A stretch of 64,000 nt of DNA from a virus (IMGVR_UViG_3300042555_002918:1-64000), one strand, 5' to 3'. Numbered from the stretch's first letter, positions 23,548-60,234 are shown. The notes: a model not told the origin generated them from the sequence alone. A program made the numbers and translations.

Positions 23548-23892
23548 CTACCCGTTCTTTTTCTGCTTGGCCAAAAGCTCCGCACGCTTACGCTCTCGCT
23601 CGGCCTTCCAGGCAGCATCCGGGTCATTTTGAACGGCAGTGGACTGAGCGCGGTCGGTGCTAGGAGTCTCGACTACGTCAGGGGCAGAATCCTTCAATCG
23701 GCTGTATGCGGCATTTATCCTTTTCATGAGTTCTGGATTGCCAGTGGGTGAGTCTGGATGATGAGTCTTTGCTGCTTTGTAGTAGGCAACCTTAAGCTGC
23801 TCCGGCGAATAGCCAATTTTAAGGCCAAGCAGGGACCTTGCCTCGTCGTCGTCGAGAGACTGCTCAAGTAGAAATTCATCAAACGTCAACAT
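23548..23892 (-). CDS. DnaJ J-domain protein with capsid-targeting-like leader
   Basis: LLGL...AYYKAAKTHHPD...MKRINAAY; N-terminal MLTFDEFLLE; TATAAATA at 23899-23906. Confidence 0.85.
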   Translation of the reverse strand: MLTFDEFLLEQSLDDDEARSLLGLKIGYSPEQLKVAYYKAAKTHHPDSPTGNPELMKRINAAYSRLKDSAPDVVETPSTDRAQSTAVQNDPDAAWKAERERKRAELLAKQKKNG

Positions 23893-24102
23893 GCCCTCTA
23901 TTTATAGGACCTGGATATCGCATCGGCGGGGATGTGAACCCTAATTAAAACCAGGCACCCAGGGGCATCTACCCCCACAATTTGGCACAAATTCATCCGC
24001 CTTCAATAACTGCCTGAAATCACTAGCGACAAAACATCAAGAAAACTGTTTGAAGGCGGAACCGGCGCTATGGTAGAATAAGGTGACGGTTGATTAAGAG
24101 AG

Positions 24103-24681
24103 GTGTGTATGAAAGGTTGCAGGCCACTTACAGAGACTGAGAAAACTCAGGTTTTAAATTCCATCAGCGGTCGCCATCAGCTTCGCGATAAGCTAATTGT
24201 CACTTTTGGTATCTATGCCGGATTTCGAATCTCCGAGATCTTGTCTCTTCGGGTCAAAGACGTATTCCAGAATGGAGTTGTCCCCAACCACGTCACGGTA
24301 CAGCGACGGAACGTCAAAGGTCGGCGTGAGGGACGAACGGTTGTAATGCATCAGATGATAAAGGATGCGGTTATTCAGTACCTCCTTGCTAACCTGGGGT
24401 TATCCTCAGACTCTCCACTGTTTCTGAATCAGGGCGGCAAAAAGGCTATTAGCCGACAGCAAGCTTGGAACATTGTTGAAAGTGCTTTTAGTGCATGTGG
24501 ATTAACGGGAACTCTGGGTACCCACTCTCTACGAAAGACTTTTGCCCTCAATGCATATCAGAAGTCCGGACACTGCCTACTCAAGACGAAAAAGGCTTTG
24601 GGGCACACCGATATTCGAACTACCGAGAAATACTTAAGTTTTGCTGAAAGTGAGGTCGAAGACCTTATTCTCAGTGCGTGA
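24103..24681 (+). CDS. Tyrosine recombinase (catalytic domain only)
   Basis: GFRISE, HSLRKT, LGH, TEKY catalytic residues; ~190 aa with no separate N-terminal domain. Confidence 0.9.
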   Translation: MCMKGCRPLTETEKTQVLNSISGRHQLRDKLIVTFGIYAGFRISEILSLRVKDVFQNGVVPNHVTVQRRNVKGRREGRTVVMHQMIKDAVIQYLLANLGLSSDSPLFLNQGGKKAISRQQAWNIVESAFSACGLTGTLGTHSLRKTFALNAYQKSGHCLLKTKKALGHTDIRTTEKYLSFAESEVEDLILSA

Positions 24682-24746
24682 ACGTCCATTAAGTTTGAAC
24701 AATTCAGTGCCAAAATGGCAGGTCGCCTTCCTAATAAATACGGGGG

Positions 24747-25619
24747 ATGAAGACCTACCTGGAGTTTATCAGTGAGTCAATTATCGACCCCCATCATGAT
24801 GGGTTAGCTCCGGCTGTGTTTGAGAGCGATCACCCTGCCCGTCTGAAGCCTATGGTACGGTCTCAAATTGAACGCGGGATTGACCACATCAACACCCATG
24901 CCGGAGTTAGGGTCCAGGATTACAGATTGATAGGGAGCATTTTAACTCATCGATACTCGGACGATTCGGACCTAGACATAAACGTACTTATCGACGGGAG
25001 TCTTGACCAGGCAGTAAAGGTCGCCTCTCAGATCAGCGGACAGCCAATACCGGGCTCCCCCTATGTCGTCAACTTTCATGTTCTTAATCACAGGGACATT
25101 TGGGATGCTGCAAATAGGGATGCGGACGGAGTGTTTGACGTTGAAAAGAATCGATTCGAGAGGGTACCAAAAGACCTCCCGTTTGATGTTACTCTCTACT
25201 GGAAAGATTTCTCTCGCGTCGCTAGCACAATTGAAAGCTTGTCAAAGAGGCTAAAAGAACTAACTCTCGACTATGATTCACTAAGAAAGGCAGGCCCAGA
25301 CGAGCTAAAGCATCTTCGAACTCTAACTATAGAGAAACTACGTACACTCAAAAAGACAGCAGTGTCACTGGTGGACATATACAAAATCATCAAGAACTAC
25401 CGTAACAAGGTTTTTGCACATGAGCTCACCCAAAGTGACATCATCAGGTACGGAGATAAAAATCGGATGCCTGCAAATGTCATCTACAAGCTGCTTGAGA
25501 AGTACCACTACATGAAACTTCTCGACAAAATCTCAAATATAATTGGACACGACGGCTCCCTGTCGGCTTCCGAAGTCAGGGAGCTTCAAGACATCTTCCG
25601 ACCAACGCACCCTAAATAA
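24747..25619 (+). CDS. Pol-beta-superfamily nucleotidyltransferase with T4 CTS-like leader
   Basis: IGS......SDLDINV motif; N-terminal MKTYLEFISE; AATAAATA at 24733-24740. Confidence 0.7.
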   Translation: MKTYLEFISESIIDPHHDGLAPAVFESDHPARLKPMVRSQIERGIDHINTHAGVRVQDYRLIGSILTHRYSDDSDLDINVLIDGSLDQAVKVASQISGQPIPGSPYVVNFHVLNHRDIWDAANRDADGVFDVEKNRFERVPKDLPFDVTLYWKDFSRVASTIESLSKRLKELTLDYDSLRKAGPDELKHLRTLTIEKLRTLKKTAVSLVDIYKIIKNYRNKVFAHELTQSDIIRYGDKNRMPANVIYKLLEKYHYMKLLDKISNIIGHDGSLSASEVRELQDIFRPTHPK

Positions 25620-25623
25620 CAAT

Positions 25624-25839
25624 ATGCCGCTTTACGAATATAAGTGCGAAACGTGTGACAACATTTTTGACTCCTACGTGAGCAAAGCCACCTCATGTAG
25701 TGAAGACCAGGGTTGTAAGTGCCCAGCTTGCTCCTCGTTAGCAAAACGCGTTGAAATTTCAACTACATCAGAGCCTGTTTTTAAAGGCACAGGCTTTTAT
25801 ACTACTGATTACAAGGGGAAAAAGACCTACTCGGGGTAA
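25624..25839 (+). CDS. Second FmdB-family zinc-ribbon protein
   Basis: MPLYEYKCETC...CPAC...FKGTGFYTTDY. Confidence 0.88.
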   Translation: MPLYEYKCETCDNIFDSYVSKATSCSEDQGCKCPACSSLAKRVEISTTSEPVFKGTGFYTTDYKGKKTYSG

Positions 25840-26247: not shown

Positions 26248-27960
26248 CTAATACCAAGGGGTCGGCGTCCGAGTTGCAGTTGGGGTCGGAGTCCGAGTCG
26301 GCGTTCGTGTTGGAGTCGCAGTAAACGTCGGGGTCGGCGTCCTGGTAGCAGTTGCAGTCCGAGTCGGCGTTCGTGTTGGAGTCCGAGTCGGCGTTCGTGT
26401 TGGAGTCGCAGTAAACGTCGGGGTCGGCGTCCTGGTAGCAGTCGGTGTGGCAGTTACCGTGATTGTTGGGATTGCCGTTCTTGTTGGAGAAGGCGTCGCT
26501 GTTAAGGTCGCAGTCGGAGCCTGCGTCGGTGTGGCAGGCACTACTGTTGGTATGGTCGTAGGTACGGCCGTTTGGTCCACCACAGGCGTAGCAGTTGGAC
26601 TCGGAGTTAAAATGGCATCACCTATCTGTTTACATTCAGCTTGAGCCTCGAACGTGGACAGGTCCATGTTCACAATAGATGACGTTATGACCTTTCCAGT
26701 CAGCGATGATGCAAAGGTACCATTATTCAATAAGATGTCTTTTACCTTCGATACCGGAAACAATCCTCCGCACATAGATTGAATGGCAAGCACTACCCCA
26801 GCGACATGAGGAGTTGCCATAGAGGTCCCGCTCATTCCGATGTAGAACTTATCCTTATATGTGCTAATAACGTTTGAACCCGGCGCTGCAATATGAACGG
26901 TCTTAGCCCCATAGTTTGAAAACGGAGACAGGGTCCCCGAGCTAGTCACAGACGCTACAGACACAATATTGCTGCTTGCATATCCTGCCGGATAGACGGG
27001 TAATCGATCGTTGCTATAGGAAGAGTTACCAGCAGCCGCCGCAAACAAAATCCCCTGATCCCCCGCAGTCTTAATTGCTGCTAAAAGTGCTGAACTGAAA
27101 CCAGTCCCTCCCCAAGAGTTATTACTTACGACAACTTTATATCCTGCCTTACGAAGCGCTGTTCCGTAATTGATTGCCTTGATAGCATTAGCAAGACTTC
27201 CGTATCCATTCTTGTCCAAAAACTTGGTGGCTACCAGTTTGACATTCCAAACAATCCCGGGGATGCCGATTAAATTATTCCCTTTTGCGCCAATGATTCC
27301 AGCAACGTGCGTACCGTGCCCATTATCATCAAGGGGATCTCCAGAGTTTCTGATTGCATTGTAGCCATATACGTCATCAACGACGCCGTTACCATCATCA
27401 TCAATCCGATTACCTGGAATCTCTCGCGGGTTTCTCCACACATTAGGGTTAAGATCTGGATGGTTGTAAGAGATACCGGTGTCGACGAGTACAACTAACA
27501 GTTCGTCACTACCCTTCGTTCGCTCCCATGCTAATGGGGCCTTGATCATTTCCTGGGCATATAGCTGAGAGTAAAGGGAATCGTTTGGAATCTCGGACTT
27601 AGAGTATGCAAAGTTAGGCTCGCACTTTACCCTCTTACCAAGCTTAGCCAAAGCCTTTCGAACCTTAGGCGACTTACATGCATTATTTTTTCTCGTGAGA
27701 ACTATTGGTTTTGAGTCTGAAACGAGAGAAAGAGCGGTCAGTCCGGACGTCTTCTCATCAAAGAACAGAGTCTTTGATGATATCGAACTAATGCGAAACC
27801 CAGATGGTGCACTTGCCACCATTGACGATAAACTTTCGGAGGATACGGACCTAGGAACGGTCACTACGGCCCCCGGATACACTAGTTGATCTCCATAGAC
27901 CATACCAATGCGAGTGATATACAGCGCAAGACTAACCACAACAGCAACAACATTCTTCAT
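26248..27960 (-). CDS. Secreted S8 subtilisin-like protease with Pro/Thr-rich tail
   Basis: [20 protein letters not shown] catalytic triad; signal peptide; TPTR/TATP repeats. Confidence 0.93.
26260..26450 (-). repeat. Tandem 12-bp-based coding repeats (TPTR/TATP linker)
   Basis: Repeated gtcggcgttcgtgttggagtc and gtcggggtcggcgtcctggtagca blocks. Confidence 0.85.
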
Positions 27961-31004: not shown

Positions 31005-31601
31005 ATGTCAAAGGGCCAAAGCGACTTCGATTTAGTGCAAGGATTAGTACAGCGCGGCGACGAAGCATGTTTCCTTGAGCTTTTTAATCGACACAGCCCG
31101 AGAGTGTACCGGGTCGCTTACCGAATCCTTAACAATCAAGCCGATGCTGAGGACATCGTACAAGAGGTCTTTATTAAGGTACTGACCAAAGTCGGAGAGT
31201 TTAAATTCCAGTGTAAATTTACAAGCTGGATACACAGAGTAGCCGCAAATGTGGCTCTGATGCGTCTTCGCTCAGTCAAACGACGCCCATCGACTTCTAT
31301 GGAGGACCTCTCAGGAACAGATTTTAACTCGTTGGTGGCTCATCGGTCAGATTCTACAAACATCGACTACATGACTTGCCAGCATGAGATACGGGCGATC
31401 CTGCAAGAGGCAATTGACAGCCTTCCAATAGCGTATCGTGAAATATTCTGCCTTCGAGATATTGACGGTCTCAGCAATAAAGAAGCTAGCAACTTGCTTC
31501 ATCTCACGGAAACGTCCGTAAAAAACCGGATTCTTCGTGCGCGTTACCTAGTTCGGGAGAAGGTGGAGGAATATTTAAAAGAGTGCGAGCTCGCAGCGTG
31601 A
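31005..31601 (+). CDS. ECF (RpoE-like) sigma factor
   Basis: DAEDIVQEVF, F..WI.RVA.N, LP..YREIF.LRD..GLS..E...L......VKNR..RAR; GGAGG SD. Confidence 0.92.
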   Translation: MSKGQSDFDLVQGLVQRGDEACFLELFNRHSPRVYRVAYRILNNQADAEDIVQEVFIKVLTKVGEFKFQCKFTSWIHRVAANVALMRLRSVKRRPSTSMEDLSGTDFNSLVAHRSDSTNIDYMTCQHEIRAILQEAIDSLPIAYREIFCLRDIDGLSNKEASNLLHLTETSVKNRILRARYLVREKVEEYLKECELAA

Positions 31602-34141: not shown

Positions 34142-34972
34142 TTAAAATTCGCCTTCTTTCTCTAACTCGTTAACGACTCGCTTTATAAACTCCTTACTTG
34201 CAGCCGGAGATAGGGATGCAGATATCAGGTAGTTCATGGTTTCAATGTAGTACGAGACATCTTCCCCAGTCCACAGGTCCAACTCTCCCTTAAGGACCTC
34301 AATATTCACAGTCCTTTCGTCGTAAAGAATAAAGGAATCCATAATAAAACGATTCAGCACCTTTTGCCACGGAAGAACGCGGATCTCTACTGAAGGCGAT
34401 GTATTGATGATATCAATTAGCCGCTTAAGCTGGTCTATCAAAACAGACCTAGAACCAAAGCATGTCCGAATAGCTCCCTCTCCCAACACAAACGTCAGCG
34501 CAGTTCGCTTACTGTGAAGTATGTTCTGTCTTTTTAATCGGGTCTTTACGAGCCTATTCAGGTTATCCTTTTCGGAGCCTACTAGGTGCTGAAACACAAC
34601 TCGCATGTACTCCTGCGACTGCAGAAGACCGGGGATTATCTGATTGTAGAAAACTCTAATATTCTTGGAGTTTTTTTCCCTGAGTCCAATGTTAATTTGG
34701 TTGTTTGTGACTTGATTTTGACTCAAGGTCCATCTAGCAAACTGCGAATTTACGAAAGCGGAGAGTTCGCGTAGTGCGTACGCCTCAGATGATGAGAGAT
34801 TGAGAGCTGCGATAGTGGCTTCGATGAAATTTTCAGTGGGTCGAAGCAGCCCATTTTCAAACTTTGATACAGCTGCCGCCGATAGACCTGTCTTTTCAGC
34901 TAAGTCCTTTCCTGTAAATCCTCGTAGTTTTCGCAGTGCCTTTATTCTGGCACCTACGCTTTCCCGGTCCAC
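34142..34972 (-). CDS. XRE-HTH regulator with DUF5753-like domain
   Basis: N-terminal HTH_3; IPGLLQS.EY.R, RL.RQ.IL, FVLGE.A, QL..L, F.LYD...V..E. Confidence 0.85.
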   Translation of the reverse strand: MDRESVGARIKALRKLRGFTGKDLAEKTGLSAAAVSKFENGLLRPTENFIEATIAALNLSSSEAYALRELSAFVNSQFARWTLSQNQVTNNQINIGLREKNSKNIRVFYNQIIPGLLQSQEYMRVVFQHLVGSEKDNLNRLVKTRLKRQNILHSKRTALTFVLGEGAIRTCFGSRSVLIDQLKRLIDIINTSPSVEIRVLPWQKVLNRFIMDSFILYDERTVNIEVLKGELDLWTGEDVSYYIETMNYLISASLSPAASKEFIKRVVNELEKEGEF

Positions 34973-34982
34973 TTTTACCTGA

Positions 34983-35579
34983 CTACAGTTCTATACCAGT
35001 GTGGGTTTTATAAAATTCCCTAAATGGCACTCCAATGCCCCAGAGCTTTTGATCGACACTTGAATAGTACGCCACCGCTTTTAGATCTGTTGTAATACGA
35101 GCTTGGTAGAGCGCACCTGTAGGATCGTAGTCGTTAACCACGACAGTTGAGCCGTCAAGGAACCAGAAATCCTCTTGAGTAATCTTTAAGAGCTCAGGAG
35201 AAAGATTGACCCTGTCCAACAGTCGAATATCTTCCCCAGCTAAACCTGTATCTTTGTAACAACACTCTATTTCAAACTTCATGTATTCGCTGAGCGGAAG
35301 GTCAACAATGTGAACTCTTCGCATGGACCGACCCGCGTCTACGTGCCCCTTTACTAGACTGCACCAGTCGGCCATGAATGATGGATCTGGACGTGTTCCT
35401 CTTCGGTACTGATTGAATGGTGAGGACTCCGATGGTTCAGCATAAGCTTGAAGAGTCTCAAGTCGGTAAGCCGACTGCTTGAACGACTGGAACATTGCAC
35501 TCCACTCGTCGCCTATTGGGATAGTGCGCCATGATACCTGTGGAATAGCTGTTCCTTGCTCTCTCTGTGTCTGCATCAT
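34983..35579 (-). CDS. DUF6879-like protein
   Basis: F..SAYRLETL..Y, RRVHIVD.PLSEY..FE, GEDIR, DFW..D. Confidence 0.8.
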   Translation of the reverse strand: MMQTQREQGTAIPQVSWRTIPIGDEWSAMFQSFKQSAYRLETLQAYAEPSESSPFNQYRRGTRPDPSFMADWCSLVKGHVDAGRSMRRVHIVDLPLSEYMKFEIECCYKDTGLAGEDIRLLDRVNLSPELLKITQEDFWFLDGSTVVVNDYDPTGALYQARITTDLKAVAYYSSVDQKLWGIGVPFREFYKTHTGIEL

Positions 35580-35612
35580 GGTTGATATCTCATTATTCAA
35601 ATAGAGCGAATA

Positions 35613-35644
35613 ACCAAGGGGCGCATATTTCAGCGCCCCTTGGT
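35613..35644 (-). terminator. 12-bp hairpin between small gene and DUF6879 gene (terminator/attenuator)
   Basis: accaaggggcgc-8nt-gcgccccttggt. Confidence 0.55.
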
Positions 35645-35657
35645 AACTTGTCAAAAC

Positions 35658-46283: not shown

Positions 46284-46319
46284 CCCCCTTTCTCACGTCT
46301 AGCTTTTAAGAGGTACACC

Positions 46320-46856: not shown

Positions 46857-46862
46857 AGGGAG

Positions 46863-47156: not shown

Positions 47157-47247
47157 AGAAAGTTGAAAAATTCCAAGATTCCCCTATTCAGCTATGTTTG
47201 AAGGCTGACGATACTTATTCTTACAAGGGCAAAGGATAAGGAGCACT

Positions 47248-47742
47248 ATGTACCAGTACAAAATCCGAGGTATCAGCGACGACCAGACAGAGTGCGATTG
47301 CTGTGGGCGCAAGGGCCTTAAGCGCACGGTCGCTCTTGAAGTGTTCAAAGATGGGGAGTCGCTCCTGGAAGTTACTCGCGTAGGGGTCGACTGCGCAAGT
47401 GTGCTTTTGTCCAGGTCAGGAAAGCCCAAGTCGGCCCGTGCCATTAAGGCTGAAGCGGAGGCCTTAAAGTCCCACGAGGAGCGCCAAAAGGAGATGCTTG
47501 AGCAGGGCTACCAATGGAAGCTCCAGAACAGGATCTCGTCCGATAAGGGCCAGGCGAACCTCTCCTACCATCGCCAATGGAAGACTCCCGATTACCGTAA
47601 CGCCGACACGGGCGTACTGCTTACGGACGGTGTGTCCTATGCACGAATCCCAAGTGACTCGACTCCAGTTCAACCGGAGAGCCCTGAAGGGAGATTCATA
47701 CGGGAGCTTTCAGCTAGGGGCTTTGCTCCGGTAGAGGGATAA
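47248..47742 (+). CDS. Zn-binding hypothetical protein
   Basis: CDCCGRK.LKRTV...G.DCA; AGGAG SD. Confidence 0.65.
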   Translation: MYQYKIRGISDDQTECDCCGRKGLKRTVALEVFKDGESLLEVTRVGVDCASVLLSRSGKPKSARAIKAEAEALKSHEERQKEMLEQGYQWKLQNRISSDKGQANLSYHRQWKTPDYRNADTGVLLTDGVSYARIPSDSTPVQPESPEGRFIRELSARGFAPVEG

Positions 47743-47760
47743 CAACAAAAGGAGATATGT

Positions 47761-48006
47761 ATGACAGTTGAACGACTTGTGCTCTCGCTCGATATCCCAG
47801 TGCGCCTTCAGATAGTAGCCTGGGTCACTATCACTGAGGCTCAAGCGTACATTAAAGCATGTAAGACTGAAGCCCCAGAGCTCCCAACGGAAAGGGCAGC
47901 ATACGACTTTTTAAAGATCATAAGCGCCCTCTCCATGCCAAGTGAGGATTACCGAAAGGTGAAAGACTTTCTATTTGCCGATAGTGAATTACTCGCCGAT
48001 GCGTGA
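47761..48006 (+). CDS. Hypothetical protein
   Basis: AGGAGA SD. Confidence 0.55.
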   Translation: MTVERLVLSLDIPVRLQIVAWVTITEAQAYIKACKTEAPELPTERAAYDFLKIISALSMPSEDYRKVKDFLFADSELLADA

Positions 48007-48011
48007 CGGGG

Positions 48012-49472
48012 TTACTTCTTAGCTCTCTGCCCAGTGGAGATGCCGCGAAATGCGGCATAGGCCCTATTGGAGAGGCGTGCATGACGGGACCTCTTATCCC
48101 CAAGCTCATGGTATCGTGTGTACTCGGGCGTCCCTGGCTTTGCGCCATCGAGCTTGTCCATTTCCCGACCGAGTGAATCGGCTATCTCACTGTGTCGCTG
48201 ATGGACGCTGTAGAGCTTATCCCTAAGGCCGCTTGCCGAACCTGGGTCAGCCGTACCTATTGATTTCCCCGTCGTATAAGAGGGGTGTGAGAGAAAAGAG
48301 GAGTTTCCGTACCAGGCTTCTTTAAGAGCGCCCTTATCGGTTAGGAACTTCTCAACTCGCGTGAGGTGTTGAGAAACGTGACGCCGTCCAGTGCGCTTAT
48401 CCTTGATGGTGTATTTGAAATCTTTGCCTGGATCGGCTTTGGGTCTGGCCTCAATTTCATAATCGGGATGGTCAAATCGGTACACGCCACTAAGTCCATC
48501 TTTTGTCTGGGCTGGGATCTGTTCCGAAAAGCCTAACTTTTTAAGCCGTGCTTTGTAGTTTTCCTCGATGAGGGACTCGGTACCTTCGGAGACGGTACCC
48601 TTAGCGTGCTTTTTCACAAGGTCAGATGCCCACGAGACAACCTTCTTGGGAAAGAACTCGGGGTTATCAAATCCGACTCGGTCAGTGTGGGAGTAATGGA
48701 CGGGATAGTCCGATCTCCAATCGTCCGAGAGGTGATAGAAGGAGTGGTTATCCTTAAGCCGGGTCACGTGAGAGAGGGTGTGCTTACCCTTAGTGCCAAG
48801 CTTTACCTTTTTGAAATCCTTAGACGGAAAAGGCTCATGCTCGGATTCCGCAGCCTCACTCAGGCCGCCGTATTGGCTTGCAGCCCGCTTGGCCTTTTCG
48901 ATCTGGTCTTGGGCTTTCTCCTCTGCGTCCTGGTGAGGTCTAACTGAGGCATAACGACTGAGGTTATGTTTGAATTTTTTGAATTGCTTATCAAACTCTT
49001 CCTCATTACCCGCTTCCTTTGCGCGACCGCCCTTGAGCATGTTTTTCATGCTGTTTCTCATGGTCTTTTGCATGATTCGGTTTAACTTGGTGATCTTTGA
49101 GTCACCGATCTGCTCTTGAAGGTGAGTATCGATAGCTTCAGTGATAATGTCACCTTCGCTCTTCTTCGTAGGCACAGAAACGCCCTCTTCAATCTTGTGA
49201 AACTTCTTAACAGCCGCTACGGCCTCGTCATGTGTGTTAAATTCGCCCAGGCGACGGGTAACATAGTGTGAGATGCCATGTTTGCCTTTTCGCTTAGAGA
49301 CGGCGTAGGCATGGTGGCCCTCTCCCTTGTCGGCCATGGTGGTGACATCCACTCGTGGGATGACGTCAACGTGTCCTACAAGGTCCCCGGCCTCTTTCCC
49401 CTTCATGAGAATGGTACGATTGCCGTGAGCTTTGATCTGATTGATGCCCTCTGCGAGTGTCTGCTTTGCCAT
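48012..49472 (-). CDS. Multi-module putative internal head polyprotein
   Basis: Internal KKSEGDIITEAI..LQE motif; LAE, IEE, LSEA, VSE, LIEE, LKEA sites; TATAAATA at 49480-49487. Confidence 0.7.
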   Translation of the reverse strand: MAKQTLAEGINQIKAHGNRTILMKGKEAGDLVGHVDVIPRVDVTTMADKGEGHHAYAVSKRKGKHGISHYVTRRLGEFNTHDEAVAAVKKFHKIEEGVSVPTKKSEGDIITEAIDTHLQEQIGDSKITKLNRIMQKTMRNSMKNMLKGGRAKEAGNEEEFDKQFKKFKHNLSRYASVRPHQDAEEKAQDQIEKAKRAASQYGGLSEAAESEHEPFPSKDFKKVKLGTKGKHTLSHVTRLKDNHSFYHLSDDWRSDYPVHYSHTDRVGFDNPEFFPKKVVSWASDLVKKHAKGTVSEGTESLIEENYKARLKKLGFSEQIPAQTKDGLSGVYRFDHPDYEIEARPKADPGKDFKYTIKDKRTGRRHVSQHLTRVEKFLTDKGALKEAWYGNSSFLSHPSYTTGKSIGTADPGSASGLRDKLYSVHQRHSEIADSLGREMDKLDGAKPGTPEYTRYHELGDKRSRHARLSNRAYAAFRGISTGQRAKK

Positions 49473-49619
49473 AGAGGTCTATTTATAAAGCCCTCTTTGC
49501 CCTGAGCGACCTTTGCAATTTGACGTTTAGCAAATGTACCCACTGTCCCCCTTTGGGTGCATTTGCTCAGTGTGTACGACTAGCGAGAGCGCTCTTTCCC
49601 TACGGAGATCTGTGATTTA

Positions 49620-50759
49620 CGGAATGTAGAAAAGGTCAAATTGGAGGGATCACTAAAGGGTAATGCTCTAGCCTTGCCCAGTTTTCGTATCGTTTATCGA
49701 TATGAAAGACCAAATCCTGATTGGCGATGCCTTAGAGATCTTAAAGACCCTACCAGACGGCATCATTAACACCTGTGTTACGTCTCCACCTTATTTTGGC
49801 CTCCGGGACTATGGCGTTGATGGTCAAATAGGATTGGAGCAAGGCCCAGAGCAGTTCATTCAAAAATTGGTAGAGGTGTTTCGTGAGGTCCGTCGTGTTC
49901 TAAGGGACGATGGGACACTGTGGGTCAACATCGGGGATAGTTATGCAACGATGCAGCGCAGTGGAAAAAAAGAATCTCCAGGGGTTGGAGCCAAACAAGC
50001 GATGCCTCCCATTAGAACAAAAATTAGGTGGGGGAAGGGTGGCGGTACAAATTTCTGGTGGCGTATTCCAACTGAAAAGTACGGGGATTTAAAACCCAAA
50101 GACCTCATAGGAATCCCTTGGATGCTTGCCTTTGCGCTTCGTGCGGATGGCTGGCACTTAAGGCAAGACACCATCTGGCATAAGCCAAACTCAATGCCTG
50201 AGAGTGTTAAAGACCGCTGCACCAAGGCGCATGAGTACATATTTCTACTAAGCAAATCTCCAAAGTATTACTTTGATAGCGAAGCTATACAAGAGCCGTC
50301 CGTTTCCACTCATCCTTCAGGTAATGGGTTTAAGAGAGAATGTCGGCTTTCGTACAAAGATAAAAATGGCGCAAGAGGAAATGATCAGCCATGGCAAGTA
50401 AAGCCTACTCGTAATCGCCGCTCGGTGTGGAGCGTAAATACAAAACCTTTCAAGGAGGCACATTTTGCAACATTTCCGGAGAAGCTAGTAGAGCCTTGTA
50501 TTCTAGCAGGCTCCCCGAAGGGTGGCTTGGTGCTTGATCCCTTTTTTGGGGCGGGGACTACGGGACTTGTAGCAAAGAAGCTTGGGCGAAATTACCTCGG
50601 TGTAGAGATCAATCCAAAGTACGCACAAATTGCAAGTGAGAGAATTGACAAATGGTTAATCTCAAACGTCTTGCCGGTAGATCACATTTTTGAATGATAA
50701 CTCATTGGACAGCGGGGCGAGCCCATCGAGCACTGGTCGCGGAATGTAGAAAAGGTCAA
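49620..50759 (+). repeat. 20-bp perfect direct repeat CGGAATGTAGAAAAGGTCAA flanking the methyltransferase
   Basis: Copies at 49620-49639 and 50740-50759. Confidence 0.85.
49702..50697 (+). CDS. Orphan N4/N6 DNA methyltransferase (beta class)
   Basis: TSPPY catalytic motif precedes HFATFP and VLDPFFGAGTT SAM-binding motif. Confidence 0.92.
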   Translation: MKDQILIGDALEILKTLPDGIINTCVTSPPYFGLRDYGVDGQIGLEQGPEQFIQKLVEVFREVRRVLRDDGTLWVNIGDSYATMQRSGKKESPGVGAKQAMPPIRTKIRWGKGGGTNFWWRIPTEKYGDLKPKDLIGIPWMLAFALRADGWHLRQDTIWHKPNSMPESVKDRCTKAHEYIFLLSKSPKYYFDSEAIQEPSVSTHPSGNGFKRECRLSYKDKNGARGNDQPWQVKPTRNRRSVWSVNTKPFKEAHFATFPEKLVEPCILAGSPKGGLVLDPFFGAGTTGLVAKKLGRNYLGVEINPKYAQIASERIDKWLISNVLPVDHIFE

Positions 50760-50795
50760 GTTTGTCGAAGGATTAGGGACTTTCGTATCTACCCT

Positions 50796-51116
50796 TTAAG
50801 GCTTGATTGCTTGTGCGTGGGGCAATACTCGATTTTGATGGCGGGTGATTTTAGCCGCACCTATTCGGTGGTGAAACCTGATAGCGGCCAATGCCTCGTC
50901 TTCTGTGTCGTAACTCCCTTTATGAACACTAATGTCATCATCTGTCACGGAAGAGTGAAATTTGCCGTTTAACTGAGTGTATGAACCAAGAAGTTTCCCT
51001 TTAGTCTCAACATCCACTGAGCTACCCCTATGAACAAGGTCCATAGGAGTCTTTTGCTCAATGAGATGAGCATCAATCTCTTCCGTGATAATGTCTTGTT
51101 CGGTCTTCTTGCTCAT
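50796..51116 (-). CDS. Putative internal head protein
   Basis: MSKKTEQDIITEEIDAHLIE leader; TATAAATA at 51125-51132. Confidence 0.7.
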   Translation of the reverse strand: MSKKTEQDIITEEIDAHLIEQKTPMDLVHRGSSVDVETKGKLLGSYTQLNGKFHSSVTDDDISVHKGSYDTEDEALAAIRFHHRIGAAKITRHQNRVLPHAQAIKP

Positions 51117-51225
51117 AGAGAGTCTATTTATAGAGAGTGAGAAGGAGCGGTGTTAAGCAGTTACATGGGCTTATGCCCCTAGAAAGTGCTTCGGGGTGAG
51201 GGTATAATTATGGTATAATTATGGT

Positions 51226-51402
51226 ATGGCGTTTGAGTTCGACCCCGCTGCTGTCATTTATGGCGAGGAGAGATTCCTCCCTATTGGTAAGGTCGGACCG
51301 TTTTACTGGACAGATGTTATCACTTACCGTTTCGGTAAGGTGAGATTTATATCGGTTAGGAGATCACGTGACACAGAGAAAAAGCTCCACCAAAGCACTT
51401 AA
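51226..51402 (+). pseudogene. BrnT-like toxin with internal deletion (58 aa)
   Basis: MAFEFDP joined almost directly to GEERF..IG...R.ISVRR; the N..KHG.DF block is absent. Confidence 0.7.
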
Positions 51403-51634
51403 GCCCATTACGGCAAAAGAGTTTGATGAAAAGTTTGACGCCGGAGAGGACGTCTCGGAACACATTCAGTGGGACAAGGCCGTTCGGCATGAGCCAAACA
51501 AGGTAAGACGGGTCAACATCGATTTCCCTGAGTGGATGATTAGAGAGCTTGACGTAAAGGCGGATCGTCTTGGGATCGCCAGACAGTCACTTGTAAAGAT
51601 GTGGGTAGCTGAGAAGTTAAAGGCGGAGAAGTGA
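51368..51634 (+). CDS. BrnA/CopG-family antitoxin
   Basis: A.EFD.KFD.GED, RRVNIDFP.WM...LD..A..LG..RQS..K.W..E.L. Confidence 0.85.
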   Translation: MTQRKSSTKALKPITAKEFDEKFDAGEDVSEHIQWDKAVRHEPNKVRRVNIDFPEWMIRELDVKADRLGIARQSLVKMWVAEKLKAEK

Positions 51635-51644
51635 GCCTTGTAAA

Positions 51645-52238
51645 CTAATCCCTTCTAGCTGCCGCTCGAACTGCCCAGTGTGGGTCCTTAGCAGCTTTTT
51701 CTAAGTGTGATGGTTTGGCGCTTGGATTCTCTGCCGCTCCCATACGGACCATGTAGTCATTATCTGAGAGAGCCTTCTCAATGTGGTGGTCTTTAGCAAC
51801 AGGGTTCTTTGCCGCAGCGTGTCTTACTACCCAATCCTCATCGGAAAGTCCTTTTTCAATGTGGTGGTCTTGAGCCTTTGGGTGACGGGCTGCCATGAAG
51901 CGTCGCTCTGAATCGTGGTCACCGATTGCACGGTCTAAATCGATCTCAAACCCGTGGTTATCAACCTTAGTTGAAATGGATTCGGCGATGATATCTTGTT
52001 CGGTCTTTTTCCCCTCTAAGAGCTTAGCTATCTCTTGGTCGGTATGCCCGGATTGTTTCAAAGACTTTACCGCGTGCTCCCTTCCTTTATGTCGGGCGAT
52101 GAGCTTTGCTGCTTCAGACTTTGACATGCCACCAAGGAGCGATGCTCCGGCGTCACTCATTTTGAGTGTTGATGCTGCAATTTTTAACTGATGCTTAACT
52201 GCATCTTCAGTAAGCGATAGTGTGGTCTTTTTGGACAT
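51645..52238 (-). CDS. Putative internal protein with HEAT/LRV repeats
   Basis: MSKKT start, internal KKTEQDIIAESI, 25-aa HHIEK.LSD.D..VR..AA.NP repeats. Confidence 0.75.
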   Translation of the reverse strand: MSKKTTLSLTEDAVKHQLKIAASTLKMSDAGASLLGGMSKSEAAKLIARHKGREHAVKSLKQSGHTDQEIAKLLEGKKTEQDIIAESISTKVDNHGFEIDLDRAIGDHDSERRFMAARHPKAQDHHIEKGLSDEDWVVRHAAAKNPVAKDHHIEKALSDNDYMVRMGAAENPSAKPSHLEKAAKDPHWAVRAAARRD

Positions 52239-52241
52239 ACC

Positions 52242-52484
52242 CTATTCCTTTTCGCGCTCTACTTTATGCTCAGGTACTTTTATAGACTCGTATTCACCGA
52301 CGTCCACAACGTAGAAGGGGCTTCCGTGGCGGTAGCCTTGGTCATATCGGACAACTTTGCCTGATGTCATTTTGCCCTTATGCGGCACTCTCACCTTGGT
52401 TCCTTCTGGGTGACCACGTAAAGCCTCTCCAAGGTAGGTCTCAATTGACTCAGCAATAAGGTCCTGTTCTGACTTTTTGGACAT
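52242..52484 (-). CDS. Putative internal protein (SH3/KOW-like)
   Basis: MSKKSEQDLIAESIETYLGE leader; GTKVRV....GKVV...FYVVD. Confidence 0.7.
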   Translation of the reverse strand: MSKKSEQDLIAESIETYLGEALRGHPEGTKVRVPHKGKMTSGKVVRYDQGYRHGSPFYVVDVGEYESIKVPEHKVEREKE

Positions 52485-52524
52485 AGTGAGCCCTTTCATT
52501 GGGGGATGATTCTTAAATTACTTG

Positions 52525-53232
52525 CTACTTAGTCTCATCGTCCAGAAAGTCAGAGAAGTGACCCCAACCGTCCTTTTTAAGAAGACCTCTTTCGTAGGCC
52601 GCTTTTCTAAGTCCGCTCTGTACCCGTTGAGATGCCCAGTGGGTTTTATGAGCTTTGCCTGCTGGTCCGCTACTTTCTCGGTACGCGCTTCGCTGCTCTT
52701 CAGACCATTCACCTGGGTGTGCAGGAAGGTCTCTCGTTCTTGTCTGATGCGCCGCAATCAATTCCTGATATTTCTTCTCGGACCTTTGATGAATGTCATC
52801 AACGCGCTTTACTCTCTGCTTAAGCTCCTCGGGGCTAATCTTCATGCCATGCTTATATGCAAGCTGCTCAGGAGCCCACGCTTTCTTAGCCCTGGCCTTG
52901 TCGTCAGAGATAGCCTCACTCACACCGCCGTATCGTAAGGCTGCATGTTTGGCCTTTATCCCCTCCAACTCGGCCTTCTCCTCAGCGGCCCTATCTGCCA
53001 TGAGCACCGTCTGGAGATCGTGGTGACGCCCAAACTTGCTAGCGTTCTTTTCAAATCCTGCCTTGTCGCCCTTAGCCTTTGCGGCCTCGGCGGCCTTGTC
53101 GCTCTTTGCGATGCTTTTATCCGCTTTTTGAATAATGCGATTTATCTTGGCGAGCTTTGAGTCACCAATCTTTTCCTGAAGGTCAGAGTCGATAGCTTCA
53201 GCGATTAACTCTTGTTCGGTTTTCTTGGTCAT
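52525..53232 (-). CDS. Putative internal polyprotein
   Basis: MTKKTEQELIAEAIDSDLQE leader; modules shared with 48012 and 53245. Confidence 0.7.
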   Translation of the reverse strand: MTKKTEQELIAEAIDSDLQEKIGDSKLAKINRIIQKADKSIAKSDKAAEAAKAKGDKAGFEKNASKFGRHHDLQTVLMADRAAEEKAELEGIKAKHAALRYGGVSEAISDDKARAKKAWAPEQLAYKHGMKISPEELKQRVKRVDDIHQRSEKKYQELIAAHQTRTRDLPAHPGEWSEEQRSAYRESSGPAGKAHKTHWASQRVQSGLRKAAYERGLLKKDGWGHFSDFLDDETK

Positions 53233-53244
53233 AATTATCTCAAA

Positions 53245-54033
53245 TTAAAACCCGCCATTGTTGTCCCAGTCATCCTTTGCACTGTGCATCCCGTGAGCAA
53301 ACGCTCGAAGGCGCGAGGAAAGGTGTTTGTAGTGCTCCTTTTTGGCAGGGTCAGATTCTTTTGATGATCGCTCTTGGTAGGTATCAGAGTGGCTGTTGAG
53401 CTTGTCGATGTAGCGGGTGTGATGGAAGTCATCACCTTTGGACTGTTTGAGCATCTTCTTTCCAAACTCATACCCTAAGTCCATAGGGCGGCTAACGCGC
53501 TTAGAGAACCCTTCAGGCTCACCTGTAATGTGCCCAAGTTTTCCAGGGAGCTTATGCTTTGCTGCGTAGTCTCTGACTTTACCGTAGACGTTTACGGCCT
53601 TGGCCACATTAGCGTCTTTTTGGTCTTCAAGGTCGTCAAACTCTTTATGGCTAATGTAGGGGTCATCCTTTTGAGCTTGGGTGAGGTCTCGGTTCTTATC
53701 CTGGAGGTCAAGGTACGCCTTTGTAAAGACGCGCTCTGCCTTCTTGGCTTTGTCGTCAGAGATAGCCTCTTTGAGACTCTTTTTAATTTCAATGGTGGGC
53801 TTTTTGTCCTCTCCACCGCGCATAAAAGGCTCTTTGGTCCGATGCTTCCAATCAAAATCAAGTTGCTTCAGGCGTTTCTTTGCATCCTCTTCGGAGGAAT
53901 GTGAGCTTTCAAGCTTCCCGTCTATGAACACTTGATGAACCTCTCTAGCTTCGGCGATTAGTTCACGCACGAGGGAGGTCTCAGTGAGGTCGATGGCTTC
54001 CGCGATTAACTCTTGTTCGGTTTTCTTGCTCAT
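53245..54033 (-). CDS. Putative internal polyprotein
   Basis: MSKKTEQELIAEAI leader; LKEAISDDKA site; TATAAATA at 54041-54048 heads a four-gene run. Confidence 0.7.
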   Translation of the reverse strand: MSKKTEQELIAEAIDLTETSLVRELIAEAREVHQVFIDGKLESSHSSEEDAKKRLKQLDFDWKHRTKEPFMRGGEDKKPTIEIKKSLKEAISDDKAKKAERVFTKAYLDLQDKNRDLTQAQKDDPYISHKEFDDLEDQKDANVAKAVNVYGKVRDYAAKHKLPGKLGHITGEPEGFSKRVSRPMDLGYEFGKKMLKQSKGDDFHHTRYIDKLNSHSDTYQERSSKESDPAKKEHYKHLSSRLRAFAHGMHSAKDDWDNNGGF

Positions 54034-54078
54034 AGAGGTCTATTTATAGAGAGTTACAAGGTGCTATCTCGATTTGAC

Positions 54079-54949: not shown

Positions 54950-55279
54950 TTACTTCCCTTTAAGGCGCGCCGCGTCTCGGTCCGCTCGAATCTCACTCTT
55001 AAACTTCTTGGTGAAGGACTGATTGAAAGTCTGGAGGCGCTTAAAGGCGATATCAAAGTTCTGCTTGTGAGCTTTGAAGTCGGGCGAGTTTCTTACATGG
55101 TCAGGGGTGAGTCCGTTCTCTAACTTTGGGAACTTCGACAGTTCAGCTTTATGTCGAGAGACGTCCGCCTCAAGTGAATCTCTCGCCTGCTTCGCCCGTG
55201 CGTAGAGGTCATCTTGGCTTTCTGTCACGAATGACCTAATAGCCTCTGCGATAATCTCCCTGGCATCTTTTTTGCTCAT
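54950..55279 (-). CDS. Putative internal protein
   Basis: MSKKDAREIIAEAIRSFVTE leader; CTAAATA at 55286-55292. Confidence 0.7.
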   Translation of the reverse strand: MSKKDAREIIAEAIRSFVTESQDDLYARAKQARDSLEADVSRHKAELSKFPKLENGLTPDHVRNSPDFKAHKQNFDIAFKRLQTFNQSFTKKFKSEIRADRDAARLKGK

Positions 55280-56963: not shown

Positions 56964-58253
56964 GTGGCGTCTGACCTTGTAAGAGGTCAAATGCAGTTCA
57001 CGTTTGCAAAATGGGTGAGACGGTGGCAGCTACTAGTGGTGGTTGTGTTACTTTTCACACTCACCTCTTCTGCTCGGTGTGAGAGCGTTACATTTAGAGT
57101 ACGAGAGCTCGGGCGCGTTAGGGCCTCTTTGTCAGTAAAAAGAGACTTCCCTGGGCTTAATCTTTCTAAAGACTTCTTCCAAGGTCAGGTACGGTTCACC
57201 TCTCATAGGTTTCCCCTTGCAGCATCAAAGGATTTAGAGACTTTGACACTTACCTTCCCTGGGAAGGCCACAGGGAGTGAAGGGAGAAGACAGAGGCTCT
57301 ATACGGTTAAGGTAACGGGGAAAAGGGTAAAGGTTACAAGTATCCCTCGCTCATATCTACCTCCCGCCTCGTGCGCTGAAGCTCATGAGAGTGGGATAGA
57401 GGAACACAGACCAACTGTTAAGGAATTTTCAGATGTTCAGGCGAAAGAGACCGTACGAGTCATTTCGTTAAGAGCTTTTACAGACCCCGAGTGGCAAAGT
57501 ATCCATGGAGGGAACTCCTCATCTGATGTAGCAAGCGCTATCAATGTGGCAGAAAGCATTTACAACAGGCAGCTTGGGATTCGGTTTAAGGTGTTAAGCA
57601 TTACCTCTCTTCTTGATTCTTTCTTAAACTCTTCCCCCTCTCCCCTTCTCAATGAGTTTAGAGTGAGTCCATCAGCAGAAGGGGAAGCAAACCTAAAGGC
57701 TCTCTTTACAGGGAAAGACATGGACGGAAGCACCATTGGAATAGCCTATGTGGGAGTTGTCTGCTACGCGCCAGAGTACTCATTCAGCGTTACTCAAAGC
57801 TATGGGGCACTTTCAGGAGCCATATTCGCTCATGAGGTTGGACATAACCTTGGCGCCTCTCACGACTTCTATAACCCCGATACGCTCATGTACCCGTCCA
57901 TTGGGACTAACCAATCAGGCTTTAGCCCTTTAAGCCTAGGACAGATTGAAAGCCACCTAAGCTACTTTGGGGAGTGCTTGGGGAGAGACTCAATGACTCC
58001 CCTTCTCTCTGGTGCAAAGCTTAGCGTGAATAGGGGGAAAAAGAGCTTTATCCTTACCCTTCGCTCAACTCGGGGGACGCTTTTGGATGGGGTCTTAGTG
58101 AGATACGCCGTAAATGGGAAAACGGCATCAAAGGTAACTTCTTCTCGTGGGTCTATCGTAATCCCAGTTAAAAGTAAGGGCGTCTTTACAATAGCCGCTC
58201 ATGTCGCAACCGAAACCACAATCACCGCTCGGGCTCGGATACGGTTCAAATAG
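56964..58253 (+). CDS. Secreted M12B/reprolysin-like zinc metalloprotease
   Basis: HEVGHNLGASHD, Met-turn LMYP, GIAYVG..C, signal-like N-terminus. Confidence 0.88.
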   Translation: MASDLVRGQMQFTFAKWVRRWQLLVVVVLLFTLTSSARCESVTFRVRELGRVRASLSVKRDFPGLNLSKDFFQGQVRFTSHRFPLAASKDLETLTLTFPGKATGSEGRRQRLYTVKVTGKRVKVTSIPRSYLPPASCAEAHESGIEEHRPTVKEFSDVQAKETVRVISLRAFTDPEWQSIHGGNSSSDVASAINVAESIYNRQLGIRFKVLSITSLLDSFLNSSPSPLLNEFRVSPSAEGEANLKALFTGKDMDGSTIGIAYVGVVCYAPEYSFSVTQSYGALSGAIFAHEVGHNLGASHDFYNPDTLMYPSIGTNQSGFSPLSLGQIESHLSYFGECLGRDSMTPLLSGAKLSVNRGKKSFILTLRSTRGTLLDGVLVRYAVNGKTASKVTSSRGSIVIPVKSKGVFTIAAHVATETTITARARIRFK

Positions 58254-58257: not shown

Positions 58258-58512
58258 TTACTTCTTTTTACTTGGAGCTTTCTTTTTAGCGGAAGCCTTC
58301 TTCACGGGGCGTTTTGCGCTGTAAGCGTTCTTAATACACTCAATAAGAGCCTCTGGCTCCGAGTCAGATAGGACGAAGTTATAGCCTAATCCCCTCTCGT
58401 CTATCCCGATAATGGAAAGGGTAATCCCAAACGGAAAGAGCTCTTCCATCTTAGAGATCCCTTCCTGGAGTCCGTCCTCGATTTGCTGAATGGTTAATTG
58501 TTTGCTCATCAA
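58258..58512 (-). CDS. Hypothetical protein with Lys-rich tail
   Basis: ORF ending KKASAKKKAPSKKK. Confidence 0.55.
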   Translation of the reverse strand: MMSKQLTIQQIEDGLQEGISKMEELFPFGITLSIIGIDERGLGYNFVLSDSEPEALIECIKNAYSAKRPVKKASAKKKAPSKKK

Positions 58513-58534
58513 AGGACCTTTTACAAATTAAAGA

Positions 58535-58795
58535 GGGCGCTAGTCGGATTCCCGATTCGTCCACCGACACCTGCCACGTGACCTCTTAGAGTCCTCTTAA
58601 CGGCCGCGAGACCGCCTCTCTTGCTCTCTAAGCGTCACAACAAAACCAGTTGCTGTGCTATTTATTTCAATCGTTTCTCCACTTAAAGGCACGAAAACCG
58701 ACAATGGGACCTGCAAACCTAAACGGTGTTCAAGAAGAAGCACCAACACGCAAGCCGCCGAACCCTTTAAGCTACGATCTTACACCATAGCGCCC
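58535..58795 (-). ncRNA. Candidate ~260-nt structured RNA
   Basis: Ends pair GGGCGCTA/TAGCGCCC; 5' end lies ~7 nt after the -10 of a GGTAATGCTC promoter; no ORF. Confidence 0.5.
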
Positions 58796-58849
58796 ACTAT
58801 AGTTTTATCAGGGTAGGCAGTACTTAGAGCATTACCCTTTTGAGAGTTA

Positions 58850-60202
58850 CTATTCGGGGTTGACTTGTCTTTTCGTCATTGCGGAAAGCGCAGCCTTACG
58901 GACATATGTTTTTTTATCAGCAAGCGCTTTAGTAATGTGCTCGTGTGTAGCATTTGGATGTGAAACGGCTTTAGCCCTTACATAATCGTCTTCATCAGCA
59001 AGCGCTTTAGTAATGTGCTCGTGTGTAGCATTTGGATGTGAAACGGCTTTAGCCCTTACATAGTAATCTTCATCAGCAAGCGCTTTAGTAATGTGCTCGT
59101 GTGTAGCATTTGGATGTGAAACGGCGCTCCCCCTGATTGGCGCACTTCCATCCGCAAGCGCTTTAGTAATGTGCTCGTATGTAGCATTTGGGTGGGAAAT
59201 TGCGGCATCTCTTACCGGCGGCTGTGCATCAGCAAGCGCTTTAGTAATGTGCTCGTGTGTAGCATTTGGATGACGAATTGCATTGACCCTTACGAGGGGA
59301 TTTCCATCAGCAAGCGCTTTAGTAATGTGCTCGTGTGTAGCATTTGGGTGGGAAATTGCGGCAACTCTAACATCTATCGAATGATGACCAAGGGCAGCAC
59401 CAATTTCATGGGACCTAACGTGAGCAACTGTACGCCCCGAGCCATCATCGTAAATATTTTCATTCTTATGATAAGCCCCCATCGGCTGATGATGATTATG
59501 ATGGGTATCGAGAATGTGCTTGACCTGATCTTCGAATCCTTTTGGTGCATCACCATATATACTTGGCTCAGGGACCAAGATAGAGTTTTGGTTCTCATCA
59601 CTGTGTTTTTTTATAGCAATCCGAGCAAGTGGCTTTTGAGGATGCCCCTGGTCATCAGCATGAACAAGATAGGCAACGTGCGTGCCGTGCTTTAGGTCTT
59701 GTTGAAGATTATGCCTGTTTTTACCACTCTCAAAGTTCATACACGAGCTGTTTTCCCAAGAGTGTCCACAGCTCGTCATTCCTGCGACATCATGTGGGTG
59801 TCTGGAAATGAGGACTCTGAGGTTTTGTTTGTTTTTCTGAGCACGAACAGGATCCTCAGCGAACTTCTTTACAAGGTTTGGCTCAGCCTTAGTCTGACCG
59901 AGAGCCTTACCAATCCGCACGTCTCGTCCGTGCTTATCCTTTGCTAAACCTGCCTTGTAGTCGTGAACCTTATATCCGTGCTTTGAAAGGTGTCCTTCTA
60001 TCGCTTCCTTCGCCGGGGAATCCGCATGGGCGGTTGAGTCAAAGTCAAAGTATCGCCGTTGGTGGGTTTCTTTATCCGTATCGGGGCCGCCAAAAAGCTT
60101 GTCACTAAACTCATTATTTCCCTTCCTCCAGGCATTTACGTCGGCCTTTTGGTCATTCCTAAGGGCTTCTTGGAGCATTTTGAATTGCTTAAAGGTCAGC
60201 AT
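58850..60202 (-). CDS. Putative internal protein with six HEAT/LRV repeats
   Basis: MLTFKQFKMLQEA leader; 75-bp tandem repeats encoding HPNATHEHITKALAD...VR..A; TATAAATA at 60211-60218. Confidence 0.8.
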   Translation of the reverse strand: MLTFKQFKMLQEALRNDQKADVNAWRKGNNEFSDKLFGGPDTDKETHQRRYFDFDSTAHADSPAKEAIEGHLSKHGYKVHDYKAGLAKDKHGRDVRIGKALGQTKAEPNLVKKFAEDPVRAQKNKQNLRVLISRHPHDVAGMTSCGHSWENSSCMNFESGKNRHNLQQDLKHGTHVAYLVHADDQGHPQKPLARIAIKKHSDENQNSILVPEPSIYGDAPKGFEDQVKHILDTHHNHHQPMGAYHKNENIYDDGSGRTVAHVRSHEIGAALGHHSIDVRVAAISHPNATHEHITKALADGNPLVRVNAIRHPNATHEHITKALADAQPPVRDAAISHPNATYEHITKALADGSAPIRGSAVSHPNATHEHITKALADEDYYVRAKAVSHPNATHEHITKALADEDDYVRAKAVSHPNATHEHITKALADKKTYVRKAALSAMTKRQVNPE

Positions 60203-60234
60203 AGACTGACTATTTATAGCTCATCATGGGAATA

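Follow-up and report, generated by a model that had tools for sequence, protein, structure and literature searches.

We examined the 64,000-nucleotide stretch IMGVR_UViG_3300042555_002918:1-64000 (hereafter the window). It makes up the opening 64 kb of an IMG/VR viral genome that is 145,388 bp long, bears direct terminal repeats and is rated complete. The virus is an uncultured and very divergent T4-type myovirus from lake water, whose TerL is at most 38-39% identical to that of any cultured phage, with the best matches in Kyanoviridae cyanophages and the Methylophilales phage Melnitz, and the same DNA was found in many lake-water metagenomes. Besides tail fibre, baseplate, gp32-like, tail sheath and tube, terminase and gp15 genes, the window holds a set of genes whose products share short leaders ending in hydrophobic-x-Glu. 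These leaders fall into two classes, A and B, and resemble the capsid-targeting sequence (CTS) of T4, the textbook example of how a phage directs proteins to its head and also an engineering tool. Tagged genes are named here by their start coordinate (e.g. 23892), and positions are those of the window unless marked as genome positions; the features are collected in Table 1.

Class A leaders begin genes 23892, 24747, 41741 and 60202. A preliminary description of the window had listed leaders of both classes by coordinate (e.g. MKTYLEFISE at 24747, MKTFLQFIVE at 41741 and MLTFDEFLLE at 23892), and all of them are present. Up to 8 of 10 positions are identical to the T4 CTS, MKTYQEFIAE (PMC8442874), and class A keeps all four critical positions, namely an aromatic residue at 4 and at 7, Ile or Leu at 8 and Glu at 10. 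In T4 this sequence is sufficient to package foreign proteins, residues 4 and 7 acting in targeting and residues 8 and 10 in processing, and the protease gp21 cleaves after L/I-x-E (PMC9026906). A CTS-like leader of about 10 residues with both aromatic positions is present in 24747, 41741 and 23892, and with an insertion in 60202. A degenerate class A DNA pattern matched 3 genes in this genome and its reversed control pattern 0, and with T4 as positive control the pattern recovered ipII and ipIII, and also gp61.1. Beyond the window class A-like starts were found on 3 genes, encoding a 346-aa J-domain protein and two ADP-ribosyltransferases (ARTs), with 2 less clear cases. The gp21 motif L/I-x-E ends all N-terminal class B leaders and the class A leaders, the two ARTs excepted.

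The class B leader reads KKTEQDIIAEAI, followed by hydrophobic-x-Glu; this core is followed by A-I and, after a short stretch that varies, by a second hydrophobic-x-Glu. In every N-terminal class B leader I/L-x-E occupies residues 10-12, and in most of them the second hydrophobic-x-E lies at residues 18-21. There are exactly 11 class B sites, all in minus-strand late operons between 39.7 and 55.3 kb, and both pattern and profile confirmed the placement given for them before (8 N-terminal, 2 internal, 1 C-terminal). A strict core peptide pattern, run on the six-frame translation of the whole 145,388-bp genome, yielded 10 sites, all of them in long minus-strand open reading frames at 43.9-55.3 kb and none in other frames. 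A tag profile search of the genome returned the 11 sites at 27-44 bits with the next best match at 8 bits; the profile is circular for its own members, the score gap being real nonetheless. The internal tags lie at 49098-49172 (residues 104-127 of the 486-aa protein) and 51942-52016 (residues 77-99 of the 197-aa protein), and the C-terminal tag at 44607-44666 makes up the final 20 residues of an HD-domain protein. Both internal-tag proteins (48012-49472 and 51645-52238) themselves start with a degenerate tag-like N-terminus ending in L-x-E, at residues 6-8 and 9-11, respectively, which fits a tandem fusion of two tagged modules. Aligned with the T4 CTS, class B agrees at 6 of 10 positions (K, T, Q, I, A and E, including I-A-E) and has Glu at position 4 and Ile at position 7; a peptide this short does not allow homology to be tested statistically. 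Because of this alignment class B, first described as an independent second tag, seems better read as a divergent form of the T4 CTS.

In an all-against-all BLASTP comparison most class B proteins were alike only over their first 15-25 residues, and likeness between tagged proteins mostly ended after the leader, as expected of the otherwise unrelated proteins they had been taken for. Exceptions that are alike beyond the tag are the 53232/49472 pair, a J-domain trio, a HEAT trio and an ART pair. J-domains and HEAT repeats occur behind both leader classes; leader and cargo have therefore been recombined. Within the 12-codon tag core different codons were used at 49% of identical residues, where random synonymous choice expects 0.47-0.79. 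Since synonymous sites are saturated, the leader appears to be old and kept by selection at the peptide level, and not to stem from recent duplication or conservation of the DNA. Conservation is confined to the leader, the cargo being diverse and differing between relatives. As far as sequence comparison can tell, the view that the leaders are real, modular and under protein-level selection is supported. When the window was compared with four lake metagenomes, contigs of run X8 were found to join tag to tag (44651 to 53949; 51107 to 52000), which is at most a hint that the tags act as homology patches, the short side of the joins being only 22-32 letters long.

The late promoter of the phage, N[AC]TAAATA, precedes tail, baseplate, head and terminase genes. 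Of the 20 tagged genes, 15 have it ≤60 nt upstream, compared with 33 of 161 other genes (Fisher p = 2e-6). Three further tagged genes sit in an operon headed by the promoter at 54048, and with operon members included 18 of the 20 lie behind a late promoter (p = 1e-9), which bears out the earlier statement that nearly all of them do; late timing is assigned to these 18 on the promoter motif only. Tagged genes and those for baseplate and head have the same spacing between promoter and ATG. Many late genes, among them ones for baseplate and head, carry N[AC]TAAATA just 6-9 nt before the start and no Shine-Dalgarno sequence (in the window 9224, 24747, 43991, 49472, 51116, 54033 and 60202; in the genome 80288-82090, 82100-82492, 85573-87549 and 114969-115319), a spacing that implies leaderless late mRNAs. 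A second, early-type promoter consists of TTGAAGGCGGAC and a -10 box, with 17 copies of the strict form against 0.4 in shuffled sequence and 21 of a looser form. In its rigid form, GTTTGAAGGCGGAC with a -10-like box about 12 nt further on, it drives plus-strand accessory genes between the late tagged genes (at 24050, 28017, 32125, 37094, 40659, 42409, 45964, 47198, 56364 and others). The association of the tagged genes with the late promoter is strong; genes 23892 and 55279 have promoters of both types.

The T4 mechanism requires a gp21-type protease and a gp22-type scaffold, and both are encoded in this genome. An I-T-E site lies at residue 61 of the capsid protein, close to where T4 gp23 is cut (residue 65), and L-x-E-type sites are also present in the N-termini of scaffold and protease. 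A class B profile search of the scaffold, capsid and protease proteins gave no match.

Table 1. Tagged genes and head-assembly genes of the phage. Window positions come first; rows marked "genome" lie outside the window.
Position (strand)	Feature	Support	Promoter
23548-23892 (-)	class A leader and J-domain protein, 114 aa	PF00226 DnaJ E 1.5e-8; L-x-E ends at residue 10	TATAAATA 6 nt before ATG; early-type promoter also, 103 nt upstream
24747-25619 (+)	class A leader, 8/10 identical to T4 CTS, and 290-aa protein	exact class A DNA pattern match	AATAAATA 6 nt before ATG
38955-39707 (-)	divergent class B leader, J-domain and HEAT repeats, 250 aa	tag 36 bits; DnaJ E 2.3e-8; HEAT E 1.3e-12	TATAAATA 46 nt upstream
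41298-41741 (-)	class A leader and 147-aa basic protein	exact class A DNA pattern match	GATAAATA 9 nt before ATG
43473-43991 (-)	class B leader and 172-aa protein	tag 36 bits	TATAAATA 7 nt before GTG start
44604-45212 (-)	HD-domain protein, 202 aa, C-terminal class B tag	PF13328 HD_4 E 2.2e-9; tag 29 bits	CATAAATA 25 nt upstream
45256-45711 (-)	short class B leader and 151-aa protein, weakly ART-like (H-Y-E type)	tag 27 bits	CATAAATA 6 nt before ATG
48012-49472 (-)	486-aa protein, internal class B tag, apparently a two-module fusion	tag 38 bits	TATAAATA 7 nt before ATG
50796-51116 (-)	class B leader and 106-aa protein	tag 40 bits; no Pfam match	TATAAATA 8 nt before ATG
51645-52238 (-)	197-aa protein: N-domain, internal class B tag, HEAT repeats	tag 38 bits; HEAT E 1.5e-11	final gene of the 54033 operon
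52242-52484 (-)	class B leader and 80-aa protein	tag 44 bits	in operon behind 54048 promoter
52525-53232 (-)	class B leader and 235-aa basic protein	tag 41 bits	
53245-54033 (-)	class B leader and 262-aa protein; heads four-gene late operon	tag 36.5 bits	TATAAATA at 54041-54048, 7 nt before ATG
54950-55279 (-)	class B leader and 109-aa basic protein	tag 38 bits	TCTAAATA 6 nt before ATG; early-type promoter also, 121 nt upstream
58850-60202 (-)	class A-like leader (two-residue insertion) and 450-aa HEAT-repeat protein	PF02985 HEAT E 1e-12	TATAAATA at 60211-60218, 8 nt before ATG
genome 79159-80199	346-aa J-domain protein, class A-like start		
genome 91418-92332	Alt-like ART, class A-like start	PF03496 E 2.9e-16; phrog_802 E 8e-8	
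genome 92370-93338	Alt-like ART, class A-like start	PF03496 E 2.3e-14; phrog_802 E 2e-10	
genome 93369-94106	less clear class A-like start		
genome 115931-116293	less clear class A-like start		
genome 107765-108412	gp21-type prohead protease	Peptidase_S77/PF03420, 118 bits; phrog_207	
genome 112307-113617	gp23-like capsid protein	phrog_138	
genome 113653-114957	gp22-like scaffold	phrog_237	
genome	portal	phrog_213	

Regarding the cargo, three J-domains, three sets of HEAT repeats, the HD_4 domain and the two Alt-like ARTs are firm assignments. The J-domain and HEAT-repeat labels of the preliminary description were thus upheld, while its ART, GNAT and NTase labels within the window were reached by sub-threshold matches only. 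The 24747 protein matches Polbeta (E 1.3e-3) and HEPN_AbiU2 (E 3.6e-4), both under the Pfam cut-offs (weakly NTase- and HEPN-like), and the 41741 protein is weakly GNAT-like by two GNAT Pfam families at E ~0.05 only. As to the two ART-like proteins listed for the window, the bona fide ADP-ribosyltransferases lie outside it, at genome 91418-93338. For the in-window ART-like proteins matches to catalytic domains of this kind reached E 0.09-0.22 only, the 45711 protein matching the PARP catalytic domain at E 0.22 and its homologue P0012 that of Exotoxin A at E 0.09. The 43991 protein gave weak ART-PolyVal and Arr leads only in Atlas (0.78 and 0.75); its body matches the C-terminal part of phrog_2579 (positions 321-465, E 1.3e-31), and its orthologues P0011 and P0018 retain the tag. 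A sequence search of solved structures with the 41741 and 43991 proteins found nothing, and single-sequence AlphaFold2 models were of low confidence (pLDDT 44 for 45711, 56 for 41741). The HEAT regions of the 60202, 39707 and 52238 proteins are mutually homologous, and the post-tag body of the 49472 protein is homologous to the 53232 protein (43% identity over 110 aa). Without the leader, 14 of the 20 tagged proteins have an isoelectric point of 8.6-9.9, like the basic internal proteins of T4.

Profile searches of 5.8 billion and 1.8 billion proteins brought to light about 20 further tag-bearing proteins from other metagenomes. Class B, which had been called phage-specific, is therefore lineage-specific and not the property of a single phage. 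Nearly all of these foreign proteins carry the tag at residue 1, and their bodies are unrelated. One of them (P0034) has HEAT repeats, P0012 combines a 45711-type ART-like body with a full-length class B leader, and P0021 has the N-domain and tag of the 52238 protein with the C-terminal cargo swapped; in P0017 the part after an internal tag is a mosaic made up of the bodies of 54033 and 49472. P0011 and P0014 are encoded on one 154.6-kb Logan/ENA contig. A partial IMG/VR relative, L009, is syntenic with the neck and baseplate end of the window, has the same late-promoter layout, and carries three leaders (two of class B, one class A-like) on different cargo. Its stand-alone gene at 10182-10580 corresponds to the N-terminal 100 aa of the 486-aa protein of the window, and because this N-domain stands alone in L009 the internal tag of the 486-aa protein appears to have arisen by fusion. 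Two further fragments (L007 and L008) have a capsid protein 89% identical and are without the tagged region. A degenerate class B DNA pattern had 0 matches in a scan of metagenome contigs, and a search for related loci with P0015 found no relative. A looser class B pattern gave 9 matches in viral contigs, which are internal in unrelated proteins and were judged to be due to chance, leaving L009 as the only true relative. Records of 203 cultured T4-like phages contain members of the family to which the 346-aa J-domain protein belongs. In the homologue of Vibrio phage vB_VmeM-32 (L031, KU160494 115395-116447) we noted a CTS-like leader ending in L-M-E, with TATAAATA about 30 nt upstream.

Of the known systems, that of T4 comes closest. 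There, too, a leader of about 10 residues, near-identical to class A and ending in L/I-x-E, is found at the N-terminus of diverse, unrelated and mostly basic proteins expressed from late promoters in a phage with gp21, gp22 and gp23, and the internal proteins of T-even phages are diverse and have only the CTS in common (PMC3012670). In contrast to the 3-4 tagged genes of T4 there are about 20 here, known from genes alone and in a phage with about 38% TerL identity to any cultured one. Further differences are class B itself, in which position 4 is Glu and a second cleavage-type site lies in a conserved extension, the internal and C-terminal tags, and a cargo that includes J-domain, HEAT-repeat and HD proteins. 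A precedent for the C-terminal class B tag of the HD protein is T4 Alt, a packaged protein that gp21 cleaves at either end (PMC9026906). The two ARTs outside the window (PF03496, phrog_802) resemble Alt in having class A-like starts and late-type promoters, but are about 300 aa long, compared with about 680 aa for Alt, and are without Glu 10. In the giant phages phiKZ and SPN3US many internal head proteins, ejection proteins among them, are likewise targeted by N-terminal propeptides that are conserved between paralogues and cut after Glu by a gp21-related protease (PMC5694885, PMC10052503). Those propeptides, however, are usually >100 residues long, with several internal cleavage sites (PMC5694885) and without a shared short consensus, whereas the leaders here have 10-21 residues and a strict one.

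The reading we favour, and consider rather probable on the sequence evidence, is that the leaders are T4-type, gp21-processed capsid-targeting propeptides, an expanded version of the T4 internal-protein system with two consensus forms. The phage would then probably load an unusually large protein cargo into its head. In such a scheme the tagged proteins would be made late in infection, mostly from leaderless late transcripts, and the short amphipathic leader would attach them to the scaffolding core while the prohead assembles. The gp21-type protease would cut after the Glu of hydrophobic-x-Glu at the end of the conserved core, probably with a second cut about 8 residues further on, and the mostly basic mature cargo would remain in the head with the DNA and enter the next host cell with it. 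Core binding, cleavage, retention in the head and ejection are what we infer from these likenesses to T4. Class A would represent the conserved T4-type CTS and class B its lineage-specific divergent form, and the internal-tag proteins would be fusions of two tagged modules separated by the protease inside the head. A more far-reaching version, for which the case is tentative and the odds somewhat unfavourable, sees in this phage a member of a freshwater T4-like clade in which a portable leader code of two parts, class A and class B, brings about one tenth of the gene products into the capsid. Internal tags would there mark effector polyproteins, to be separated by the prohead protease within the head, and J-domain proteins among those delivered would seize the host Hsp70 as soon as infection begins.

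Several findings weigh against capsid targeting of the T4 type. Class B has Glu in place of aromatic residue 4, which is critical for targeting, and both ARTs have no Glu at position 10. The J-domain gene at genome 79159-80199 has an early-type promoter only, and the mature cargos of 39707, 43991 and 45711 are near-neutral or acidic. The class A DNA pattern had no match in Melnitz, S-N03 and S-CAM3, the three nearest cultured relatives by TerL, so its conservation across the superfamily is patchy. The pattern alone is no proof of packaging either, because T4 gp61.1, which is not known as a packaged protein, matches it; or else gp61.1 merits a second look. This 54-aa hypothetical protein (NC_000866 18966-19130), encoded beside the primase gene, has the CTS-like decapeptide at its start.

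Among the other explanations, an unlikely one that nevertheless fares best accepts that the leaders target the prohead and are cut, and lets the cargo serve head assembly or DNA condensation instead of the next host, as accessory core, chaperone-recruiting or charge-neutralising proteins. J-domain and HEAT-repeat proteins would be plausible assembly helpers, many cargos are small, basic and of no known family, and most core proteins of T4 are degraded and expelled (PMC9026906). Enzymes such as the Alt-like ARTs, the HD hydrolase, the ART-like body and the phrog_2579 domain, however, have no obvious role in assembly, and the cargo turns over fast between relatives, as is typical of host-interaction genes; moreover, the internal proteins of T4, and Alt too, are ejected (PMC3012670, PMC9026906).

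It is improbable that the late promoter, leaderless start and first ~20 codons form a 5' module for translation initiation and recombination that has nothing to do with capsid targeting, comparable to the PeSL elements by which genes are shuffled in T4-type phages (PMC2839356). With 6-9 nt between promoter and ATG, the mRNA has the first codons as its 5' end, the start is followed by Lys codons, relatives swap cargo directly after the tag, and related-strain contigs join tag to tag over short flanks. As with PeSLs, a repeated promoter-proximal module flanks fast-shuffled accessory genes in a hyperplastic region. Yet PeSLs are non-coding, pair an early promoter with a stem-loop and are conserved as DNA (PMC2839356), whereas the repeat here is coding, linked to late promoters and conserved as amino acids only, with synonymous sites saturated; internal and C-terminal copies of the tag lie far from any promoter, three tagged operon genes have no promoter of their own, and the motif ends in a protease recognition pattern.

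We give similarly little credit to the idea that only class A is a true CTS, class B being some other signal, such as a helix that binds a host factor or membrane, a driver of co-assembly or a degron. Class B does lack the aromatic residue at CTS position 4, an amphipathic acidic helix after two lysines is a generic interaction motif, and class B was not found in T4 or cultured phages. Against this stand the alignment with the T4 CTS, I-A-E included, the J-domain and HEAT cargo families common to both classes, the confinement of class B to late operons and the second hydrophobic-x-E at a fixed distance. Finally, that the shared N-termini are a remnant of recent duplication in one paralogous family, or chance resemblance, was rejected: the 53232/49472 pair, the J-domain and HEAT trios and the ART pair are paralogous beyond the tag, but most pairs share only 15-25 residues, synonymous sites are saturated, eleven profile matches stand clear of the next best at 8 bits, and the tag sits on unrelated cargo in other metagenomes.

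Other genes of the window deserve mention. At 3-5176 (+) lie two very large fibre-like proteins with dozens of near-identical 18-residue Ala/Glu-rich repeats, at 24109-24681 (+) a short (190 aa) gene of the tyrosine recombinase/integrase family behind an early-type promoter, and at 31005-31601 (+) an ECF-like sigma factor (Sigma70_r2 E 1.7e-19, r4_2 E 1.3e-14). Two apparently secreted proteases are encoded at 26248-27960 (-) and 56964-58253 (+); one of the pair is a subtilase whose long C-terminal repeat is rich in Thr and Pro and whose gene stands behind two early-type promoters, and its counterpart is a reprolysin-like zinc metalloprotease. A second HExxH protein is encoded within the head module (genome 111396-112205). 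A gene pair at 34142-35654 (-) encodes HTH-DUF5753 and DUF6879 proteins (E 1e-31 and 2e-46), families that are mainly actinobacterial. This pair, taken with the leaderless mRNAs and the linker rich in TP, may hint at an actinobacterial host.

If capsid targeting by these leaders is true, the targeting code of T4 would be nearly unchanged in its letters on both sides of a very deep split of the T4 superfamily, could diversify into a second consensus, and would be usable on about 20 cargos, including ART and HD hydrolase enzymes and chaperone recruiters with J-domains. The two leader classes would also offer alternative ready-made targeting tags for protein delivery by phage capsids. The interest of the finding lies in a sequence rule by which candidate injected proteins of uncultured phages can be sought: a short motif would identify candidate anti-defence or host-takeover proteins directly in metagenomes. 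Should the joint reading as a portable two-part code be true as well, this phage would have by far the largest and most modular repertoire of injected proteins known for a T4-type phage.

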